Shown: piece by piece, positions 17,257 to 58,802 of the stretch | How positions within the stretch are numbered: the first letter of the stretch is position 1 | Layout of the letters: each line of letters begins with the position of its first letter | DNA from: a virus | Reading direction: 5' to 3' (one strand) | Length of the DNA stretch: 64,000 nt | Virus record (IMG/VR): IMGVR_UViG_3300027792_000010 | The notes under the pieces: model-generated | Seen by the model: only the letters and a program-made list of their open reading frames with translations | Told to the model about the DNA's origin: nothing | Databases searched by the model: none | Made by a program: the position numbers and the translations under genes

Positions 17257-18246
17257 ATGTACAAAATTATATCGACTGTTAATATAGAAAAAAAGTTTTA
17301 TATTTATGAATTTTGGGACTCACTTAAAAATGAGCCTTTCTATGTAGGTAAAGGAACAAAAAGCGCTATTAAAGGAAGATACCAAAGGTTTAGAGATCAT
17401 ATTAATATTGCTTTAGGTATTAAAAAGCAAAGAGATCCTAATAATCATAAAATTAGACGTATATCAAAAATTGTAAGATTGGGTGGGCAAATATTAGTAA
17501 AATTTGTTTTCCAAACAGACATAGAATCAGAGGCTTTAGAAAAAGAAAAAGTTCTTATTAAACTATATGGGAGAAGAGATTTAGGTACAGGAACTCTTAC
17601 TAATATGACTAACGGTGGGGAAGGACAATCTGGTAGAATATTTACTGAAGAAGAAAAAAGAAAAATAAGTTTAAGAGTAGCTGGTATAGGAAATCCTATG
17701 TATGGAAGAACACATACAAAAGAGTCAAGGGAACTTATAGCTATAGGTCACAGAGGAAAACCAGGACATAAGCACACAGAGGAGTGGAAGCAACATCTAA
17801 GGGTGTGTAATGCTGGTGGGATATCAGTTTCTAATCCTATATATCAAATAGGGTTAGATGGTAAAGTTATTAACAGATTTGATTCCGCTAAAAAAGCGGC
17901 TGAAACTTTAAATCTAAAAACTTATGGAAATATATATTCTTCAATAAAATATAAATATAGAACATATGGAGGGTATTATTGGAGAAGTATAGATGATTCA
18001 AATATTGAAAATGGTAAACTTATAAACATAGATGAAATTAATAAAAAAAGACTCAAACCTCACCATACTAAAAATATAAACCAATATGACATGAATGGTA
18101 ATTTATTAAAAAGTTGGAAATCAGCTTTAGATATAAAAAGAGAATTAGGTATAAGTAATAGTATAATATCTAATATTATTAATGGTAAAAGAGTAACAGA
18201 TATATACTATGGGTATAGATGGGAGTCTTTATGTACCTGTTCATAG
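17257..18246 (+). CDS. free-standing GIY-YIG (LEM3-like) homing endonuclease with NUMOD3/NUMOD1-like repeats
   Basis: YIYEF..PFYVGKG..R..DH; LTNMTNGGEG; NPMYGRTHT; FDSAKKAA, WKSALDI. Confidence 0.85.
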   Translation: MYKIISTVNIEKKFYIYEFWDSLKNEPFYVGKGTKSAIKGRYQRFRDHINIALGIKKQRDPNNHKIRRISKIVRLGGQILVKFVFQTDIESEALEKEKVLIKLYGRRDLGTGTLTNMTNGGEGQSGRIFTEEEKRKISLRVAGIGNPMYGRTHTKESRELIAIGHRGKPGHKHTEEWKQHLRVCNAGGISVSNPIYQIGLDGKVINRFDSAKKAAETLNLKTYGNIYSSIKYKYRTYGGYYWRSIDDSNIENGKLINIDEINKKRLKPHHTKNINQYDMNGNLLKSWKSALDIKRELGISNSIISNIINGKRVTDIYYGYRWESLCTCS

Positions 18247-22278: not shown

Positions 22279-22707
22279 TTAATTACTACATTTCCAGGAT
22301 GTTTTGGTACCACCATCGTATGATTTAGCATATCCTAATTTAATTAATTCTTTTGCAAGGTCTGATCCATCTACATAGATATCAGCATCTATTCTAAAGT
22401 ACTTATCTCTAGACATTCTTTTAAGTTCTATCTTTTTTGCATTTTTAAATTTAGCTATTACATAGTCACGTACTTCTATAGCTAAAATTTTTGAGCACTC
22501 TTTTCTTATTTCCGGGCAATCTACTCCTCTAAGTCTAATCCCAACATTAGTGCCTATAATAGGAGGAAAATCTTTTAAATTAACATAGTAGGTATCTCCA
22601 TCATAGACTCTTAAGATTCTCTCTATAACGGCATCCCCATAAAACACTTCTGCAGAATAGGCTGAATATAAAGCCAATAATATGACAATTGTGATAATTT
22701 TACGCAT
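22279..22707 (-). CDS. thermonuclease (SNase) family protein with signal/TM helix
   Basis: VYDGDT, IRLRGVDCPE, DKYFR. Confidence 0.9.
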   Translation of the reverse strand: MRKIITIVILLALYSAYSAEVFYGDAVIERILRVYDGDTYYVNLKDFPPIIGTNVGIRLRGVDCPEIRKECSKILAIEVRDYVIAKFKNAKKIELKRMSRDKYFRIDADIYVDGSDLAKELIKLGYAKSYDGGTKTSWKCSN

Positions 22708-22722
22708 AGCTAAAGTTCCTTA

Positions 22723-23616
22723 TTAAAAGTTGAAGTCATTAACTTGAAGTACTGTTATCCCTAACCCTCTAAAGAGTTTACAGACTTGTGGCCTATCATC
22801 CACTGCGAATAATACTTGATACTCAGGCTCTACTATGGTATGATACAGTTCTTCTTTTACGATAGAATCTTTTCTGGAATCCCCTGTAATTCTCATGATA
22901 AGTTTTTCATAGGGTACATTATGTTTCATTAACCAATTAGCTGTGGCATCCCTACAACTATCATCCCTACCAGACATAATTATAATCTCAAGCCCTGCCT
23001 CATAAAATAGATTAACAAGATATGCCACATACTCATCGAGGGTATCTTCCTCTACAAGGTCATAGGCATAGTAGTCCCTACCGCTGTAATTTAGGGCAAG
23101 AGTACCATCTAAGTCAATTATGACAGCATCTTTTTTTTCTGGATGGCTTATGAAAGCTTTTCTTACAGGGGGGAAATAAGCATCTCGTACTTCTACTTTT
23201 CTACCTCTGATATATTTATTAAACATATTCTCGATAATATGGGCGGGGACTATTTTTTCTCTTTTGGAGTTATTCTCCTGGGCCTCTTTAAGAGTAACTT
23301 CAAAGTATTTCTCAAATACCCGTACATCTCCCATTCTTTTCGCAATCTCACATATAGCCTCGTATGTTTTCTCACTCAGGTTAGTATCATCTATTATTAC
23401 ATCAAGACCTTTAGCTAAGCATTGCTCGATAAGAACATCTCTCACATTGGTGATGAAATTTTCATTAACTGTGTTATGCACATCATTATCAAGCATTACT
23501 CTAAGAAGGTCTTTATTTATCCTTTTATATTTCCCAGGATACTTCATTAGCATTTCTTTAGCCCAGGTACTCTTTCCTGATCCAGGTAATCCTCGTAATA
23601 ATATAATTATGCGCAT
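22723..23616 (-). CDS. T4 PseT-like polynucleotide kinase/3'-phosphatase
   Basis: RGLPGSGKST, INKD.LR; DLDGTLA, SGR, DDRPQV. Confidence 0.92.
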   Translation of the reverse strand: MRIIILLRGLPGSGKSTWAKEMLMKYPGKYKRINKDLLRVMLDNDVHNTVNENFITNVRDVLIEQCLAKGLDVIIDDTNLSEKTYEAICEIAKRMGDVRVFEKYFEVTLKEAQENNSKREKIVPAHIIENMFNKYIRGRKVEVRDAYFPPVRKAFISHPEKKDAVIIDLDGTLALNYSGRDYYAYDLVEEDTLDEYVAYLVNLFYEAGLEIIIMSGRDDSCRDATANWLMKHNVPYEKLIMRITGDSRKDSIVKEELYHTIVEPEYQVLFAVDDRPQVCKLFRGLGITVLQVNDFNF

Positions 23617-23618
23617 AT

Positions 23619-24254
23619 TTAATTCCTCAATTTATTAGGGACTACAGGTTTACTCATCCAATGTTCATCTGTTTGAACATGTCCTGAACGTACATATTTA
23701 ATATGATATTTACTAAAATCATTATACGGTATTTTGTCTGCTAACCTAACAACATACCCCTCTACCTCGTCTGTAGAATTTTTACAGTATTCTTCATATT
23801 TTTCATGTATAAGTTTTCTATCGTATATTCCTTTATAAAATACGTCTACTGTTTCTAACTCCAGTAAGCTTGCCCATGTGATTGTTTCATTCCATGATAC
23901 GGCTTCATTATATTCGTTAAATACAGTATAAAGATAAAAATAACTTTTTAAATTATTATAATGTATAGAGTGCGTTGCATATAGATTCTCACCGCACAGT
24001 CTGTGCCCCGGTGGTATTAAGTATCCTATTTTTCCATGTAACGACTTTATCCATACTCTCGAAGGATGCATCGCCGAATCTATAGATCTTGCATGTACCT
24101 TAGATGTGTACAAAGAAGATGATTCACCATCAACTTTTATACTACCTATTATTTCCTTTCCTTCAAAAACCGTTTCATTCTCATGCCTCCTGTCATCATT
24201 TTGTAGATTAGGAGAATCAGAAAAATGATATATACGTGGAAATTTATAATACAT
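23619..24254 (-). CDS. ATP-dependent RNA ligase family protein
   Basis: KFPRIYH, motif I KVDG, GENLYATHSI.Y, EGYVVR, KYVR. Confidence 0.85.
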   Translation of the reverse strand: MYYKFPRIYHFSDSPNLQNDDRRHENETVFEGKEIIGSIKVDGESSSLYTSKVHARSIDSAMHPSRVWIKSLHGKIGYLIPPGHRLCGENLYATHSIHYNNLKSYFYLYTVFNEYNEAVSWNETITWASLLELETVDVFYKGIYDRKLIHEKYEEYCKNSTDEVEGYVVRLADKIPYNDFSKYHIKYVRSGHVQTDEHWMSKPVVPNKLRN

Positions 24255-24299
24255 ATTTTTTTCTTTCCTGGGTTTTCCGTATTTTATTTCTATGCATCC

Positions 24300-24548
24300 T
24301 CAAAATGCATCCTCAAAAAACATAGCCACAAGTTGATCTGCTGGATTCATTTCCTCTATATCAGCTTGTACTAAACTAACTTTCATTTCCATATATGATT
24401 TAAGTTTTTCCATATATTCAGGTGTAACTTCTAAAAAATTATAATGGAATCCTGGGTGTATAACCACACTTTTTACTTTGTCCCCATTGTAGATTTTGTA
24501 ATCTAATTTCTGAAGAAACTCTTCAACAGTTTGCTTTTCTTTTTTCAT
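24300..24548 (-). CDS. hypothetical protein
   Basis: ORF with RBS. Confidence 0.55.
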   Translation of the reverse strand: MKKEKQTVEEFLQKLDYKIYNGDKVKSVVIHPGFHYNFLEVTPEYMEKLKSYMEMKVSLVQADIEEMNPADQLVAMFFEDAF

Positions 24549-24561
24549 TTAGTTACCTTTT

Positions 24562-25263
24562 TTAATCCTGTTGATAGCCTAATAAATCAAACAAAGCTCT
24601 ATGAGACCTCTTTTTTGGATTATAATTGAATCTCATAATAACCATATCACCTTTCCTTTGTGAAGGGGTGAAAGGTTTTCTGATAAGCCTTAGTCCTGCT
24701 TCCTCTGGAGTCTGGTTCTTTTTAATAACCACATTACAATGAAAACACGCAGTTACACAGTTATCAAAAGTGTTCTTACCGCCTCTTGATGTAGGCTGAA
24801 TATGATCGATAGTCCTATCTTCAGAAGTACACCTGTACTTATAAGGTTTGCATGGGGTCTCATACCCATTTTTATCAATTATATATTCATGATAGTACTG
24901 ACAAATATTATCATCTCTATTATAAATAGCAGTTTCACTAAAAGCCACAGTATCTGACTTAACCTTGTAACCGACGAACTCTATCAATCTAACAATAAGG
25001 GGCATCTTTAGCCTTACAACAAATTGATTATCCTGATCGAATATACACATCTTCTCAGAACCCCTAACATCAAGTATCCCATTGAGGAACTTATTGCGAG
25101 GATCTGAAGTTCCTATGATACGTTCATCATCGACTTTGATAATCTCTATTACTTTCCTGCTAAGAAGACTAAAGAATCTTTCAAGGTTAATCTCATCCCA
25201 GAAATGATAGCTCTGGTTTAGAACAACAATAGATGCACTCATATAGGCACCACTCCAATCCAC
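24562..25263 (-). CDS. HNH endonuclease (McrA-like)
   Basis: RD...CQY; TIDHIQPTSRGG.NTFDNCVTACFHCN. Confidence 0.9.
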   Translation of the reverse strand: MDWSGAYMSASIVVLNQSYHFWDEINLERFFSLLSRKVIEIIKVDDERIIGTSDPRNKFLNGILDVRGSEKMCIFDQDNQFVVRLKMPLIVRLIEFVGYKVKSDTVAFSETAIYNRDDNICQYYHEYIIDKNGYETPCKPYKYRCTSEDRTIDHIQPTSRGGKNTFDNCVTACFHCNVVIKKNQTPEEAGLRLIRKPFTPSQRKGDMVIMRFNYNPKKRSHRALFDLLGYQQD

Positions 25264-25356
25264 ATAAAAAAGACCTTCTTCCTATAGCACAGGTTTCGAT
25301 CTTTTATTATTAAATTAGTTGAATACAATATTACTTCCTCTCAAGCCACGGTTCGA

Positions 25357-26241
25357 TTAATAATCACCTTCTGCTACCTGAAACACTGGAAGTCCTAGCT
25401 CCCTATACATTTTAACGTTTCTCACTCGGTCCTCCCAGACGCTGAGGACATTGTACTTACCCTTAAAGTTCTGCTCATACAACTCCTGTTTGACTTCAAC
25501 ATCTGGTCTACGATCCCCAGTAGGTCTCATGTATATCTTATCAAACTGAATATTGTTCTTTATGAGCCACTCTTTTGTAACGTCATAGAATTTATCTTCC
25601 CTACCTGTAACAATAAATATTAAAAGATTAGGGTACATAACTTTTAGAGCATTAACAGCACATGCCACAGGCTCATTTCTCTTGTCTTTATATGAGCTAC
25701 CTGTGTCATATGGACTTCGCCCTTTGATTAGAGCTAATGTACCATCCATATCCACCAAAATACATACAGGGAGTCCGTCTATAGGCTTATATTCTGTCTT
25801 AGACTGCGCCTCCTCTGCTTTATCTGATTTGTACTGCTTCAGCATACGGTATATGACTGCGAGACCCACACGGGCTATCCCTGTGCGCATAGCATCTCTT
25901 GCTATGCACTCTTCAACTGGAATATCCATAAAGCTCTTGTACTCATACTCAGCCTTCCCAGCCAGAAACTCTTCCATTTTCCTTCTGGTATTTGCATTAC
26001 AGAAAGTCTCATCGACTATGACATTGAGATCTTTCGCCAATGCCTCCAGAATAAGTCTGTCCCTTTCGGCAAGTACTTGCTTCTCTACTTTGTTGTTGAA
26101 CTTGTAGTCTGGTCCTCCAAACTGGATACGGAGGTCATCGCGGTTCACACGGACCCAATTAGGGTTCTGTGCTATGAACTCTTTCGCCCAGGTGGATTTA
26201 CCACTTGCTGGAAGCCCTTGTAAAAGAAGTACTTTATTCAT
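25357..26241 (-). CDS. second T4 PseT-like polynucleotide kinase/3'-phosphatase
   Basis: GLPASGKST, VNRDDLR; DMDGTLA, TGR, EDR. Confidence 0.92.
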   Translation of the reverse strand: MNKVLLLQGLPASGKSTWAKEFIAQNPNWVRVNRDDLRIQFGGPDYKFNNKVEKQVLAERDRLILEALAKDLNVIVDETFCNANTRRKMEEFLAGKAEYEYKSFMDIPVEECIARDAMRTGIARVGLAVIYRMLKQYKSDKAEEAQSKTEYKPIDGLPVCILVDMDGTLALIKGRSPYDTGSSYKDKRNEPVACAVNALKVMYPNLLIFIVTGREDKFYDVTKEWLIKNNIQFDKIYMRPTGDRRPDVEVKQELYEQNFKGKYNVLSVWEDRVRNVKMYRELGLPVFQVAEGDY

Positions 26242-28995: not shown

Positions 28996-30313
28996 GTTCA
29001 TAAAAACTTGGACAAATCCAAATTAGTATGTCTTTGTTCTTGAGGGACGGTAGACTCCTCAATCGATCCAAAATGAAGTATATTTTTAGATGCATTATAA
29101 TCTGCATCACATGTATACCCACAAGATATACACTCATATACTTCTCCTTGTCTTGAATCTTTGTGGGTCTCCCCACAAGATGAACATCTCTGAGAAGTAT
29201 AAGCAGGAGATATTTTGATCAGATGAACACGGTTCTCTTCACAAATATCTTCGATCCTTCTATACACTTGTCTCAGGTTCCAATGAGCCTGTTCAGCTCT
29301 TTGAAATTTGTTCATACGTCTTTCTTGACGTGTTTTATGATTCATATTTATTAAATCCTCCATGACTACAGTTTTGTATTCATGGAGGTTAAGTTTCTTT
29401 ATCTCACAATCTATATAATCTTTCAAACTATTTAACGCTTGATTATAGTTCTTACTATGCTTCTTTTTTCTTAATAAATTCTGGATTTTAGAAGTTATCT
29501 CGGTACCGAGGAAACGACCATCAGAACATGAAAATAATTTATTTCTTCCAAGGTCTATTCCTAATGTTTTAAACTTAGCTATTGGGGTATCTTGAATATC
29601 TTTTTGAAAGAATAAGTTTGCATAGTACCTGTTTTGTTCTTTATTAAAATATAGTGTTAGGGATTTAGATAAGGAATAGCCACTATTACATAACTTATTA
29701 TACTGTCTATGCTTATGAGATGGAAGTATAAGTGAAAACCTGTTACCAAAAATGGAACCAAGTCTGATCCACAGGTCAAAACTTGAAGAAGTTTTTGACT
29801 CTTGTACATGGCATAGGTCAGAGTTTAGTTCTATAGTAGAACCATCAAATATAGGTTTATTTATTCTCGGTCTAAAAGTTTTACCTTTAGACCAAACAGA
29901 CCACGTTTTATTTACTATGGGATATTTTTTCTTCTTAGATTTAGCTTTAGCGTATATTTTTTTATATTTTGAATATATTCTTTTTTTATTATTAGTGTGA
30001 GCTGATTTAAGTATTTTCATAGCTTGATTACCTGCACACTTCATAGCTTTACCAAGTAACCAAGAGTATATTTGTTTATAGTGATTTGAGTTTATTTTAG
30101 AAGGTAGTTTTTCTTTTAACCAGTACAGGTCTATAAAGACATTAACGACTCTTTGATATTCTTCAAAGAATGATTTAAGTTTATCGATTTTAAAATTAGT
30201 AGCCTCATTCAAGGATACTTGAGATCGTTTAATAAGTTTCATAGTATTTATAGCCAAGTAAGAAATGTATAATATTATCTAAATATGTCTAAATTTTCTT
30301 TAAATAGTTTCAA
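28996..30313 (-). mobile_element. non-autonomous IS607-like element carrying only tnpB
   Basis: flanked by GG at both junctions (GGAGGG|TTGAAAC...AAGTTTTTATGAAC|GG); tnpB fills the element; no TnpA. Confidence 0.75.
28998..30242 (-). CDS. tnpB: RNA-guided endonuclease TnpB (Cas12f-like)
   Basis: RuvC GIDLG, VMEDL, PAYTSQRCSSCG, CISCG..DADYNASKNI; ATG 30242 (ORF track starts 30257). Confidence 0.9.
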   Translation of the reverse strand: MKLIKRSQVSLNEATNFKIDKLKSFFEEYQRVVNVFIDLYWLKEKLPSKINSNHYKQIYSWLLGKAMKCAGNQAMKILKSAHTNNKKRIYSKYKKIYAKAKSKKKKYPIVNKTWSVWSKGKTFRPRINKPIFDGSTIELNSDLCHVQESKTSSSFDLWIRLGSIFGNRFSLILPSHKHRQYNKLCNSGYSLSKSLTLYFNKEQNRYYANLFFQKDIQDTPIAKFKTLGIDLGRNKLFSCSDGRFLGTEITSKIQNLLRKKKHSKNYNQALNSLKDYIDCEIKKLNLHEYKTVVMEDLINMNHKTRQERRMNKFQRAEQAHWNLRQVYRRIEDICEENRVHLIKISPAYTSQRCSSCGETHKDSRQGEVYECISCGYTCDADYNASKNILHFGSIEESTVPQEQRHTNLDLSKFL

Positions 30314-33122: not shown

Positions 33123-33203
33123 AGCCGGATGAGGGACTCGAACCCCCGATGCCTTGCGGCGCTTGATTACAAGTCAAGTGCAGTACCACTCTGCAAATCC
33201 GGC
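33123..33203 (-). tRNA. tRNA-Thr(UGU) with long variable arm
   Basis: CTTGA-CTTGTAA-TCAAG; V region CGCCGCAAGGCAT. Confidence 0.85.
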
Positions 33204-34931: not shown

Positions 34932-35040
34932 CGGAGGGTGAGGGATTTGAACCCCCAAACCCGTAAGGGTGACGGTTTTCGCCGGAACATCTCATGGGTG
35001 TGCCGACAAGACCGTTGACTTACCATTAGCCTAACCCTCC
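34932..35040 (-). tRNA. tRNA-Ser(UGA) with 27-nt hairpin insertion in the anticodon (34980-35006)
   Basis: ACGGT-CTTG[27 nt]AAA-ACCGT, long V arm, G73. Confidence 0.88.
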
Positions 35041-41037: not shown

Positions 41038-41187
41038 AGGCTCAAAGACTCCTGATACGATCAGCTTACCATCATCAGTTTCACCTACAACTGTTAAGGT
41101 AACAGTACTCCGTTTGCTTTTAGCATGGGGGTGTCTCCTTTTCTATTTATATTACAAGTTTTTCATATGGATTACAATTATTTTAAA

Positions 41188-41271
41188 CAAGTGCGGAGGG
41201 ACTCGAACCCCCACAGACTCAAAGAGTCACGGTTTTGGAGACCGCTGAACTACCTATTATTCTACGCACTT
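41188..41271 (-). tRNA. tRNA-Trp(CCA) with long variable arm
   Basis: GCGGT-CTCCAAA-ACCGT; V region GACTCTTTGAGTCT; A1-U72, G73. Confidence 0.85.
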
Positions 41272-41463
41272 ATGTTTATTTTCATGTATGTCATGTACAC
41301 TATAGACAATTGTGGTAATTTTTTCTGCTTGATTCAATATTGATATTAATCTTTGTTTTATCTTTTCGTCAGTGGCAGATAGAAGTAATAGTTCAGCATT
41401 TCCGATGATACAGCATAGAGCGTTACAGATATCATGATGTTCTTTCATGATTAACCCCCTCAT
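41257..41463 (-). CDS. stand-alone HisKA-like phosphoacceptor fragment
   Basis: HDICNALCCIIGNAELL resembles H-box HD.NN.L..I.G.AEL. Confidence 0.55.
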   Translation of the reverse strand: MRGLIMKEHHDICNALCCIIGNAELLLLSATDEKIKQRLISILNQAEKITTIVYSVHDIHENKHKCVE

Positions 41464-41643: not shown

Positions 41644-41755
41644 TGGTGGTAGAGAGAGGATTTGAACCTCTGTACCCCGAAGGGAGCGGATTTGCTAAGT
41701 TCACCGCTCGGATGAACTTAACAGTCCGCCGCTTTTTCCACTCAGCCACTCTACC
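41644..41755 (-). tRNA. tRNA-Tyr(GUA) with 27-nt hairpin insertion in the anticodon (41694-41720)
   Basis: GCGGA-CTGT[27 nt]AAA-TCCGC, long V arm, G1-C72, A73, CCA. Confidence 0.88.
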
Positions 41756-42487: not shown

Positions 42488-42563
42488 TGGAGGCGGTGAT
42501 GGGCCTCGAACCCACATACTCGGTTTTGCAGACCGATGCATGAACCTATTCTGCTACACCGCC
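42488..42563 (-). tRNA. tRNA-Cys(GCA)
   Basis: TCGGT-CTGCAAA-ACCGA, U73, CCA. Confidence 0.95.
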
Positions 42564-55571: not shown

Positions 55572-55621
55572 ATATAATTTGCCTTTGTAATTCTCTTACA
55601 TCAGATAGGCTATATTAAAAT

Positions 55622-55657
55622 AAAAAAGCCCCCGAACTTCTCAGTCCGGGGGCTTTT
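55622..55657 (-). terminator. intrinsic terminator of attenuator 2
   Basis: GCCCCCGGAC-TGAGAA-GTTCGGGGGC-TTTTTT; 5' arm can instead pair with GGTCCGGG (55674-55681). Confidence 0.88.
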
Positions 55658-55680
55658 ATAAGCTACTTGTTTACCCGGAC

Positions 55681-55758
55681 CTATACAATACTATCAAACA
55701 TACTATCAAAACTGATAGTATCGCTGTTGATGATAATGCTGAAAGTAGAGGTACACAT
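55681..55758 (-). CDS. 25-aa leader peptide of tRNA array 2 (MCTSTFSIIINSDTISFDSMFDSIV)
   Basis: 17 of codons 6-24 are cognate to the downstream Phe/Asp/Met/Ile/Ser(GCU) tRNAs. Confidence 0.85.
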   Translation of the reverse strand: MCTSTFSIIINSDTISFDSMFDSIV

Positions 55759-57088: not shown

Positions 57089-57870
57089 ACTGTTTTTACT
57101 TTCACTTTATAGGTTTTGTAGAAATCTCTGGTGATATTATGAAACTCTTCCGGTAGTAATTCTACAGTTTTTTGAGCAATATCTTTAGGGATTTCTTTAT
57201 AGAAAGCCTGAGCTATACCTCCGGCAATACATGCCATAGTATCCGCATCGCCATTAAGTCTTATAGCTTTTTTGATCGCGTCTATAAAGGAATCGGACTC
57301 AAGAAAACAAATGATAGATTCAGGTACTGACCCCTGACACGTCGCATCGAATTTGTAGGTCGGTGCGATATCTACCAGAGTACGATTAAGGTCATATCCA
57401 AAACTTTTTGATATGACTCTCTTAATCTCTTCTTTGGATTTCCCAATGCGTGCCATATAAACTGCTAAAGCTGTAGCTTGAGCACCTTTGATACCTTCTG
57501 GATGACTATGAGTACACTCTGCGCTTTTTTTAGCCTCTTCTAAGACCTTCCTAGGGTTATCAAAAGCATACCCTATAGGACTTACCCTCATGGCAGAACC
57601 ATTGCCAAAACTATTAAAAGGGGCATTAGAAGAAGAATCTAACCAATCTTGAAACATCCCGCCATATCCCCGACCTGGGTATCTATTACCGAAGTCTTTG
57701 TAACACTCACCATAGCTCTTCCCCGTTAGGATGGCTGAGCAGGTAGCGAAAGACATTACAGAGTCATCCGTGTAATCAGTCCCATCTGCAAACAATTCAA
57801 AATCATATACTTCTGTTTTCTTCCATTCATATGCACTCCCGATCACGTCACCTATGCAGGCACCCAGCAT
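57085..57870 (-). CDS. ADP-ribosylglycohydrolase (DraG/ARH family)
   Basis: G..IGD..GS.YE, TDDS, GNGSAMRVSP, THSHPEG, GDADT; ATG 57870. Confidence 0.92.
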   Translation of the reverse strand: MLGACIGDVIGSAYEWKKTEVYDFELFADGTDYTDDSVMSFATCSAILTGKSYGECYKDFGNRYPGRGYGGMFQDWLDSSSNAPFNSFGNGSAMRVSPIGYAFDNPRKVLEEAKKSAECTHSHPEGIKGAQATALAVYMARIGKSKEEIKRVISKSFGYDLNRTLVDIAPTYKFDATCQGSVPESIICFLESDSFIDAIKKAIRLNGDADTMACIAGGIAQAFYKEIPKDIAQKTVELLPEEFHNITRDFYKTYKVKVKTV

Positions 57871-58802
57871 GATATACCGCCTTTCACTCTTTCTTTTTCG
57901 TATCCCAACCATTCTTTCCACGATATCCAACCTTTATTTAGATATGTACGGCTAGGAAAAGAAGGTATAGTGATTGGTCTACTACCACTTTTACAAAAAC
58001 ATTCCCATTCGGTTTTACTTTGTATATTAAATTTTTTAATATATTCTTTAGCTTCTGAATAGGGCATAAAACCTGTTTTTAAGACTATTATACCTTTTAT
58101 TTTATAAAATTTATTATATTTTCTTAACAATTTTAAGCTACTATCTCTATACATGAAATCTCTTAATAGTATTGAATTATTGTTAGAAAACCTTGTGCTA
58201 TAATAAATGCTGTCTTTAGGTCTTGTATAGTCAAATAACTTTTCACCCTTTTTTCTAACTTTTATGTAAATAATACCGTGTATACCTTTTATGCTACTTT
58301 CTATTGCTTCTAATAATTTATATGCTAACTCTTTGCTCCCTGAAGTGAAATCTGTTTCAAGATTATTATTATCTTTTAGAATGCTCACGCTCCCATCTCC
58401 GTCAAAGTACCCTCTAATAAAGTCTGGTAAATATTCCTGAGGGACTGTTGGAAATCCAATATCTAAACTTTTTCTTTCTTTTCCTCCAAGATTTTTTATA
58501 TCTTCAATTATTTCTTTTGAGTAAATACATATAAAATAATTATTTTTACAAGTTTTCTTTATAGGATGATTAGATTCCATAACTTTTAAAATATTTTCTA
58601 ATATATATTTGTCATTTTTATGCTGGCTTATTCCAAAGCATTCTTTATCTATAAATCCATCGGCCCACCAAAATCCTAAAACATAGGCCATATCTTTAGT
58701 CCAAATTTTAAAAAAATCTTGATTAACGTTATATCTTCTTGCCCCCTGATTCCACTTATTTTTCCAACGTTCCAATTTTTCTGATTGTGCTTCTTTGCTC
58801 AT
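57852..58802 (-). CDS. LAGLIDADG homing endonuclease with C-terminal DNA-binding repeat
   Basis: AYVLGFWWADG, FIRGYFDGDG; PY.EAKEY...IP..P...Y..KGW.SW..WLG. Confidence 0.88.
   Translation of the reverse strand: MSKEAQSEKLERWKNKWNQGARRYNVNQDFFKIWTKDMAYVLGFWWADGFIDKECFGISQHKNDKYILENILKVMESNHPIKKTCKNNYFICIYSKEIIEDIKNLGGKERKSLDIGFPTVPQEYLPDFIRGYFDGDGSVSILKDNNNLETDFTSGSKELAYKLLEAIESSIKGIHGIIYIKVRKKGEKLFDYTRPKDSIYYSTRFSNNNSILLRDFMYRDSSLKLLRKYNKFYKIKGIIVLKTGFMPYSEAKEYIKKFNIQSKTEWECFCKSGSRPITIPSFPSRTYLNKGWISWKEWLGYEKERVKGGISCWVPA

Follow-up and report, generated by a model that had tools for sequence, protein, structure and literature searches.

To our knowledge, the standard account is that bacteria and their viruses remove introns from tRNAs only by means of self-splicing ribozymes. 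Protein-catalyzed splicing of tRNAs is a hallmark of archaea and eukaryotes, and among eukaryotic tRNAs, tRNA-Tyr is the classic example of one with an intron. In 23S rRNA (for example, in Salmonella), an intervening sequence (IVS) of about 90-150 nt forms an extra stem-loop on an RNA helix and is excised by RNase III with a staggered cut. The fragments of rRNA that result are not rejoined, and they still work. In phage T4, a break in the anticodon loop of a tRNA is repaired: PrrC cuts tRNA-Lys, Pnkp heals the ends, and Rnl1 seals them. Finally, Devoto et al. 2019 (PMC6784885) described "enigmatic" introns in the tRNAs of Lak megaphages, including tRNA-Tyr(GTA). According to their Table S6 (PMC6784885), the Lak inserts are 79-93 nt long, they belong to none of the Rfam families, and they have no known mechanism.

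Here we analyze a tRNA-Tyr gene whose anticodon is interrupted by a hairpin of 27 nt. The gene lies in a stretch of 64,000 nt of viral DNA (from IMG/VR record IMGVR_UViG_3300027792_000010), which we will call the window. The window is from a huge phage: its contig is 190-202 kb and has several tRNA blocks as well as genes for peptide deformylase, YqeY, a chaperonin, and homing endonucleases. There are about 78 relatives of the type I topoisomerase that the window encodes, 50-92% identical to it, and the phage-like contigs that carry them are as long as 416 kb. We compared the window to contigs of related phages (L001, L003, L008, L010, L098, and L170) and to L166, which is from the same phage and extends past the end of the window.

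We read the 27 nt as a genuine intervening sequence in a working tRNA-Tyr, and we think that this phage clade has a small family of hairpin mini-introns to which it belongs. The full account, in which the insert would be cut out by RNase III, is built from sequence comparisons and predicted folds. We consider it plausible, at somewhat less than an even chance.

The tRNA-Tyr gene and its insert

The tRNA-Tyr gene is of the bacterial type and is on the minus strand at 41647-41755, with its CCA extending to 41644. The Rfam model for tRNAs (RF00005) matches the gene from end to end (model positions 1-71), with a score of 52.6 bits (the gathering score is 29) and with a block of 28 positions left unaligned in the anticodon loop. 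With default settings, ARAGORN does not report the gene. If 41694-41720 is deleted in silico, ARAGORN reports an 85-nt tRNA-Tyr(gta). The insert is exactly these 27 nt, and it lies between anticodon positions 35 and 36. The 5' exon (41721-41755, minus strand) comprises positions 1-35 and ends with G34 and U35, as placed by the Rfam alignment and by ARAGORN on the spliced sequence. The 3' exon (41644-41693, minus strand) runs from A36 to A73 and the encoded CCA (41644-41646), as seen in the sequence and with both tools. The insert between them (41694-41720, minus strand) was delimited by exact matching, by its fold, and by comparison to a relative's tRNA-Tyr (see below).

As encoded, the acceptor stem of the gene is 7 bp long, the D stem is 3 bp, and the anticodon stem is 5 bp and encloses a "loop" of 34 nt. 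The variable arm is long, the T arm is normal, and A73 and CCA follow. Taking out the 27 nt leaves a canonical anticodon loop of 7 nt, with U33, then G34-U35-A36 as the anticodon, and then A37. A class II body together with A73 is the bacterial tyrosine type, and this gene has all of the expected features: the class II variable arm, the 3-bp D stem, A73, and the GUA anticodon.

To place the boundaries of the insert, we can use a related phage (L001) whose tRNA-Tyr gene is uninterrupted. The two genes are syntenic, as both are in arrays with the order Leu-CAA, Tyr, Leu-UAA, Trp. The joined exons from the window are identical to the 19-nt anticodon arm of the L001 gene. If the deletion is shifted by one base in either direction, then it no longer reproduces this arm, and the anticodon becomes GCA (Cys) or GUU (Asn). 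This genome has separate genes for both of those tRNAs: tRNA-Cys(GCA) is at 42488-42563, and tRNA-Asn(GUU) is at L166:3167-3252. Because of the match to the L001 arm and the presence of the separate Cys and Asn genes, the boundaries of the Tyr insert are unambiguous. A first-pass annotation of this DNA had claimed that removing the insert would restore a tRNA-Tyr(GUA) with A73 and a long variable arm, and that the gene does not encode a tRNA-Cys. ARAGORN's call and the match to L001 at the junction bear out the first claim. The second agrees with the class II body, the A73, and the separate tRNA-Cys(GCA), and tRNA-Asn is excluded in the same way.

ARAGORN's intron mode (-i) does report a tRNA-Asn(gtt), and it places an intron of 27 nt at position 38. 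On that reading, the insert would be an intron of the archaeal or eukaryal type, at the canonical position (37/38) of a tRNA-Asn(GUU), and it would be cut at a bulge-helix-bulge by a splicing endonuclease. Also, one distant relative of the topoisomerase is from a genome that is labelled as an archaeal MAG. Nevertheless, this reading is very improbable. The body is class II with A73, which is the bacterial type for tyrosine; tRNA-Asn(GUU) has its own gene elsewhere in the genome; and the syntenic gene in L001 is a tRNA-Tyr(GUA) with the same anticodon arm. The insert forms a continuous helix with the anticodon (see below), and when we tried to pair the bases manually, two 3-nt bulges and a 4-bp helix could not be drawn in either register (35/36 or 37/38), so we rejected the bulge-helix-bulge. 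Across about 60 ORFs of the window that we scanned with Pfam, we did not find a splicing endonuclease domain of the EndA/TSEN type.

We also considered a group I intron. The Rfam model (RF00028) has no match to the Tyr insert or to anything near it, even with E up to 1, and with the same settings, it does detect true group I introns in the relatives. We rejected this class, as 27 nt is too small for the P1-P9 catalytic core, which takes over 200 nt. Neither the other Rfam families nor any known ribozyme matched the insert. Overall, a 27-nt hairpin is unable to self-splice by any known ribozyme class. It had been noted from the first that the insert is too short to be a group I intron and lacks a bulge-helix-bulge, and both the RF00028 result and the continuous helix agree.

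The tRNA region has other features, which we mention in their own right. Two of the tRNAs in the window have long, class-II-like variable arms, which are unusual for their amino acids: tRNA-Thr(UGU) at 33123-33203 (81 nt) and tRNA-Trp(CCA) at 41187-41272 (86 nt). The tRNA-Asn(GUU) (86 nt) has an unusual arm of this kind too. The next tRNA block, about 2.6 kb past the end of the window, includes a tRNA with a CUA anticodon (L166:6938-7010), which is an amber suppressor and which ARAGORN labels as "Pyl". At 55620-55742, just upstream of a block of tRNAs for Phe/Asp/Met/Ile/Ser, two Rfam models match weakly, those of the His operon leader (36 bits) and the Thr operon leader (33 bits), with scores that do not reach gathering. 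Also, a gene for a TnpB (Cas12f-like) lies inside the window's tRNA array (28998-30257); a HEARO (IscB-associated) RNA lies directly after tRNA-Trp in L001 (9339-9566); and the window encodes a LAGLIDADG endonuclease (57852-58802) and a GIY-YIG endonuclease (17257-18246). Because of these four elements, we describe the tRNA region as rich in mobile elements. Near the tRNA array of another relative, L170:16548-17237 encodes a Thg1-like protein, from the family of tRNA-His guanylyltransferases.

A second insert, a shared fold, and the distribution of the inserts

The window contains a second gene of this kind, a class II tRNA-Ser(UGA) with G73 (34932-35040, minus strand, 109 nt; 44.9 bits with the Rfam model). 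The Ser insert is also 27 nt (34980-35006), and it is in the same register as the Tyr insert. (A G is repeated at both ends of the Ser insert, so the junction could be at 35/36 or at 34/35.) After this insert is removed, ARAGORN recovers a tRNA-Ser, and the anticodon loop matches the identity of the body. The Tyr and Ser inserts share their length and register and have no sequence in common, and each of them occurs just once in the window.

Homologous Ser inserts of exactly 27 nt are present in two of the related phages, within the genes at L001:15691-15799 and L010:8447-8560. L001 is from an ENA sample, and its topoisomerase is 78% identical to the window's; L010 is from a JGI sample, and its topoisomerase is 62% identical. 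In L010, the insert is housed in a different type of tRNA-Ser(UGA) body. Between the window and L001, 11 of the 27 bases of the insert differ, yet two double changes (C-G to G-C and G-C to A-U) preserve the pairing of the basal stem. In the exons, just 8 of 82 bases differ, and all of these are in compensated pairs (1:72 and one pair in the variable stem) or in loops. As judged from these sequences, this is the pattern of a selected tRNA with a structured, faster-evolving insert, and it is unlike a pseudogene. The first-pass annotation had suggested looking for similar inserts in related phages and for covariation within them, and the homologous Ser insert, with its two fully compensatory stem pairs, is such a case. 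The comparative support for the Tyr insert is borrowed from Ser, because the Tyr insert was seen in only one genome. By this analogy, the functional status of the Tyr insert rests on its match to the Ser insert in length and register.

We used RNAfold to predict the structures of four precursors (the window's Tyr and Ser and the Ser of L001 and L010). All four are predicted to form a cloverleaf with an extended anticodon arm. From the base, this arm has a stem of 5-6 bp, a 1x2 internal loop (C32 versus A37-A38), and then a helix that opens with U33-A36, continues with position 34 paired to i27 and 35 to i26 (the last two bases of the insert), and has about 10 more rungs and a small loop. In Tyr, the pairs are U33-A36, G34-C(i27), U35.G(i26), and 10 further pairs, or 13 bp without interruption, capped by a loop of 5 nt. 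This 13-bp helix spans both junctions in both the minimum free energy fold and the centroid fold. The z score for the Tyr precursor is -4.8, and none of 200 shuffled sequences folded as well. Across the four aligned anticodon arms, 95% of the cells are paired, versus 36-52% after sliding the 3' partners, and both members change in 7 of the pairs. In particular, 34:i27 and 35:i26 show covariation with the anticodon: they are U.G and G-C in Ser and G-C and U.G in Tyr. These folds reproduce the original proposal that the last two insert bases (GC) pair with G34-U35 and that U33 pairs with A36, which buries the anticodon in a continuous helix.

The Tyr insert is known from one phage genome. Its three assemblies show 100% identity and probably share a single sample as their source. 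The Tyr insert is present in the Logan assembly of run SRR5468431, which is identical over 12.2 kb, but we do not count this as independent because the sample is probably the same. The tRNA-Tyr gene is uninterrupted in L001, L008, L098, L003, and L170. As for Ser, L003 has the same type of body as L010 and a topoisomerase that is 89% identical to L010's, and it does not have the insert; neither do L098 and L170.

More broadly, we ran ARAGORN in intron mode on the first 165 loci and found only four cases with an insert (Tyr and Ser in the window, and Ser in L001 and L010). We also scanned the whole records of ten related huge phages from IMG/VR for tRNAs, and none of the roughly 190 matches has an insert of 20-40 nt. 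Because these scans came back nearly empty, the inserts seem to be a rare class that is limited to a narrow clade, at least among the sequences that we reached. Neither the region nor the gene has a match by megablast or blastn among the INPHARED phages; IMG/VR has no match to the Tyr gene's exact 3' end; and the pattern of the Ser insert is unmatched in IMG/VR and in the contigs of GTDB genomes. A looser pattern, with the Tyr anticodon arm and any insert of 20-40 nt, had 41 matches in IMG/VR. None of these is a tRNA after the gap is removed, so we attribute them to chance.

Some relatives have introns of another kind. Within class II tRNA genes, RF00028 detects true group I introns at L098:8350-8594, L098:17788-18083, and L010:6091-6345, with scores of 67-79 bits, and in each case, a 3' exon with a T arm and CCA follows directly. 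Since L098 and L010 carry these introns, the tRNAs of this clade have both ribozyme introns and hairpin inserts. Also, the IMG/VR record of L089 has a 172-nt match to the tRNA model (G005:C1:142658-142829, 33.7 bits), which suggests that another huge phage has a tRNA with an insert of about 100 nt.

Might the Tyr insert be an artefact of assembly, or else a dispersed palindromic DNA repeat that fell into the gene by chance? Palindromes that form hairpins can arise during assembly or library construction, and all of the assemblies with the Tyr insert may come from one sample. However, two different assemblers agree on the sequence, and the Ser counterpart is found in independent samples and assemblies (contigs from ENA and from JGI). 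Furthermore, the length and register agree between inserts whose sequences are unrelated. We found no other copy of the Tyr insert in the window or in any of the loci that we fetched; each of the two inserts is single-copy, and we rejected the dispersed repeat on that basis. We find the artefact hardly credible. The first-pass annotation had named assembly error or unconserved decay as outcomes that would overturn its reading, and three observations speak against these: the presence or absence of the inserts in relatives, the compensatory changes in Ser, and the exon changes that preserve the structure.

How the inserts might be removed

A hairpin of this size cannot self-splice by means of any known class of ribozyme, and an anticodon that is buried in a helix cannot decode. 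Either proteins excise the insert and rejoin the exons, or else the RNA does not function as a tRNA. We lean towards the first of these: the insert is probably removed by proteins and the exons joined again.

If the RNA is never spliced, then the gene might be a recently inactivated tRNA with an insertion scar, or its product might be a tRNA look-alike whose masked anticodon makes it a decoy, a regulator, or a sponge for nucleases. The restriction of the Tyr insert to one genome fits with this, and its helix, a perfect 13 bp, might be of recent origin. Also, the relatives do well without the insert, and we know of no bacterial tRNA-splicing nuclease. On the other hand, the Ser insert persists across phages whose topoisomerases are only 62-78% identical, and it does so with a constant length, with compensatory changes in its stem, and with exon changes that all preserve the structure. 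In both genes, removing the insert restores a perfect anticodon loop that fits the identity of the body. In a decoy, there would be no need for the anticodon and the body to agree. Finally, we did not find a second gene for tRNA-Tyr or tRNA-Ser(UGA) in the 82 kb of this genome that we read. We think it is unlikely that these RNAs go unspliced.

If proteins do remove the insert, then which ones? The geometry of the precursor points to RNase III. As a criterion, we took a coaxial double-stranded helix of about two turns whose scissile bonds are offset so as to leave 2-nt 3' overhangs. The predicted arms have a stem of 5-6 bp, the 1x2 loop, and then 13 bp (Tyr) or 11-14 rungs (Ser), which fits. 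Given how Tyr pairs across the junctions, the 5' junction is 2 bp nearer to the tip of the hairpin than the 3' junction is, so the two cuts would have a 2-bp stagger and would leave 2-nt 3' overhangs on both products. Such overhangs had already been proposed; for Tyr, this is correct from the pairing, as a matter of geometry. In Ser, because of the repeated G, the offset is 2 or 0 bp, and staggered and blunt cuts are equally possible; the length and register that it shares with Tyr would favor the staggered cut. A nuclease that reads the geometry of a double-stranded helix is suggested by three features: the helix is continuous, the inserts have a constant length that amounts to about one turn past the cut, and the junctions are staggered by 2 bp.

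In the route that we propose, the insert would turn the anticodon arm of the precursor into one long helix, with U33 paired to A36, the first two bases of the anticodon paired to the last two bases of the insert, and about 10 further rungs, or one helical turn, beyond these. A double-strand-specific nuclease that reads this geometry, most likely the host's RNase III, would cut both strands with a 2-bp stagger. The insert would come away as a hairpin of 27 nt that has a 3' overhang of 2 nt, and the 3'-OH of U35 and the 5'-phosphate of A36 would be left behind, held together by the body of the tRNA. A phage RNA ligase of the ATP-dependent kind would then seal the anticodon loop. RNase III leaves 5'-phosphate and 3'-OH ends with 2-nt 3' overhangs, and such ends are direct substrates for ATP-dependent RNA ligases. 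However, the 2-nt stagger comes from Tyr alone, and on the exon side, the helix has just 3 bp before the 1x2 internal loop. We know of no precedent for splicing by RNase III plus a ligase, and we found none in the literature that we searched. For this specific route, with RNase III and direct ligation, the excision, the nuclease, the chemistry of the ends, and the ligation are all read from the geometry and the gene content, and we would rate it as a reasonable bet that falls short of even.

The window does encode candidates for the sealing enzymes. There is an RNA ligase (PF09414, E = 5.7e-24; 211 amino acids) at 23619-24254, and there are two copies of Pnkp, at 22723-23616 (PF25109, E = 2.6e-42) and at 25357-26241 (PF25109, E = 1.6e-37), each with a P-loop kinase domain. 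All three are on the minus strand and are 15.4-19 kb from the tRNA-Tyr gene. The first-pass annotation had mentioned a Pnkp and an RNA ligase, which Pfam confirms, with Pnkp present twice. Another RNA ligase is encoded just past the end of the window (L166:3909-4895). We did not find a match by sequence in PDB for either ligase. Genes for ligases and Pnkp are common in large phages as counter-defense, so their presence is weak evidence for splicing. Adjoining Pnkp is a gene for a staphylococcal-nuclease-like (SNase-like) endonuclease (22279-22707, minus strand; PF00565, E = 7e-08), which also matches thermonucleases in PDB (E ~ 3e-4) and phrog_452 ("endonuclease", E = 1e-14) and is a speculative candidate for the cutter. 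Within 22279-26241, the SNase-like nuclease, Pnkp, the 211-amino-acid RNA ligase, an HNH endonuclease, and the second Pnkp form one co-oriented block; the Pnkp duplication, split by the HNH gene, looks like the insertion of a homing endonuclease beside a gene duplication. Among the roughly 60 ORFs of the window that we scanned, we did not recognize RNase III, EndA, or RtcB, and we did not find RNase III (PF14622) in five records of related huge phages. If RNase III is involved, then the host would have to supply it.

Alternatively, the insert might be spliced by proteins with another endonuclease, from the phage or the host, such as a metal-independent RNase or the SNase-like enzyme next to Pnkp. 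This would leave a 3'-phosphate or a 2',3'-cyclic phosphate along with a 5'-OH; Pnkp would heal these ends, and an RNA ligase would seal them, much as T4 repairs tRNA-Lys after PrrC has cut it. This is the only end chemistry that requires Pnkp, and in this genome, a single block holds both Pnkp paralogues along with an RNA ligase and the SNase-like nuclease, with the second ligase on L166. The evidence for an intervening sequence (the conservation in Ser, the folds, the covariation, and the ARAGORN results) fits this route equally well. However, the match to SNase is weak, nothing links the block to the inserts, and we do not know of staphylococcal-type nucleases that are site-specific. Similar repair blocks are common in large phages without inserts, and this one is not close to the Tyr gene. 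Also, the constant length of 27 nt and the 2-bp stagger are explained less naturally than by an enzyme that measures double-stranded RNA. We consider this alternative doubtful. The idea that was first put forward, RNase III plus the phage's ligase and Pnkp, holds up in its geometry and in having these phage enzymes encoded nearby, but the combination is internally redundant, since the ends left by RNase III do not need Pnkp. The first-pass annotation also offered a more speculative reading, in which the insert may mask the precursor from anticodon nucleases such as colicin E5 or those of the PtuAB type.

If RNase III and a ligase do remove these inserts, then this might be a third, undescribed route for tRNA splicing, in which hairpins of about 27 nt are released by a single double cut by RNase III and the phage's RNA ligase reseals the anticodon loop. 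The rule would be "U-N-N / insert / A", in which the U pairs with the A and N-N pairs with the last two bases of the insert. This generalization is tentative, and we would not be surprised if it proved wrong. If it is true, then the maturation of selected phage tRNAs depends on the phage's own ligase. More broadly, if the inserts are spliced, then a pair of a nuclease and a ligase carries this out in a bacterial cell; either RNase III has wider roles or there is a new nuclease; and phage RNA ligases are more than repair enzymes. Splicing would also explain why tools for finding tRNAs under-count the tRNAs of phages. The system is small, and one transcript, one or two enzymes, and suppression as a read-out would be enough for a direct test of it.

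Comparison with known systems

In the literature that we searched, which was mostly outside of subscription journals, we did not find any bacterial or phage tRNA described as having a hairpin intron of 20-35 nt. Group I introns in the anticodon loops of bacterial and phage tRNAs are in the same class of location, but 27 nt cannot hold P1-P9. The introns of archaea and eukaryotes, which are cut by EndA/TSEN and joined by RtcB or Trl1, are similar in several ways: they are short, they are in the anticodon loop, they depend on proteins, the anticodon pairs with the intron, and two cuts are followed by ligation. In contrast, the inserts described here do not have the 3-nt bulges or the 4-bp central helix, and they are at 35/36 instead of 37/38. 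Also, the tRNA-Tyr is a bacterial class II tRNA, EndA and RtcB were not recognized in the window, and the cuts would be staggered by 2 bp within a continuous helix.

The Lak introns are similar in that they are inserts in the anticodon loop that are not group I introns, they are in very large phages, and they are optional between close relatives. The inserts described here share those traits: they are non-self-splicing, optional inserts in huge phages. However, they are not 79-93 nt long and have no T-arm-like element. The Lak inserts do have such an element, and they are placed after position 37 (according to a eukaryotic tRNA scan), while the inserts described here are plain 27-nt hairpins inside the anticodon (35/36) and are paired with it. 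In the broad sense of an optional, non-ribozyme insert in the anticodon loop of a huge phage's tRNA, these inserts are the Lak phenomenon, but they differ from it in size, shape, and position.

By analogy, the closest working systems are the IVS of 23S rRNA and the repair of tRNA by T4's Pnkp and Rnl1. The IVS of 23S rRNA is likewise a grafted stem-loop with a staggered double-stranded cut, but a tRNA that was cut in its anticodon would need to be religated. As in T4, the window has genes of homologous types for a kinase-phosphatase and an RNA ligase. In T4, the damage is done by a nuclease of the host's defense, and no sequence is removed, while in the present case, it is the gene itself that would program the break.
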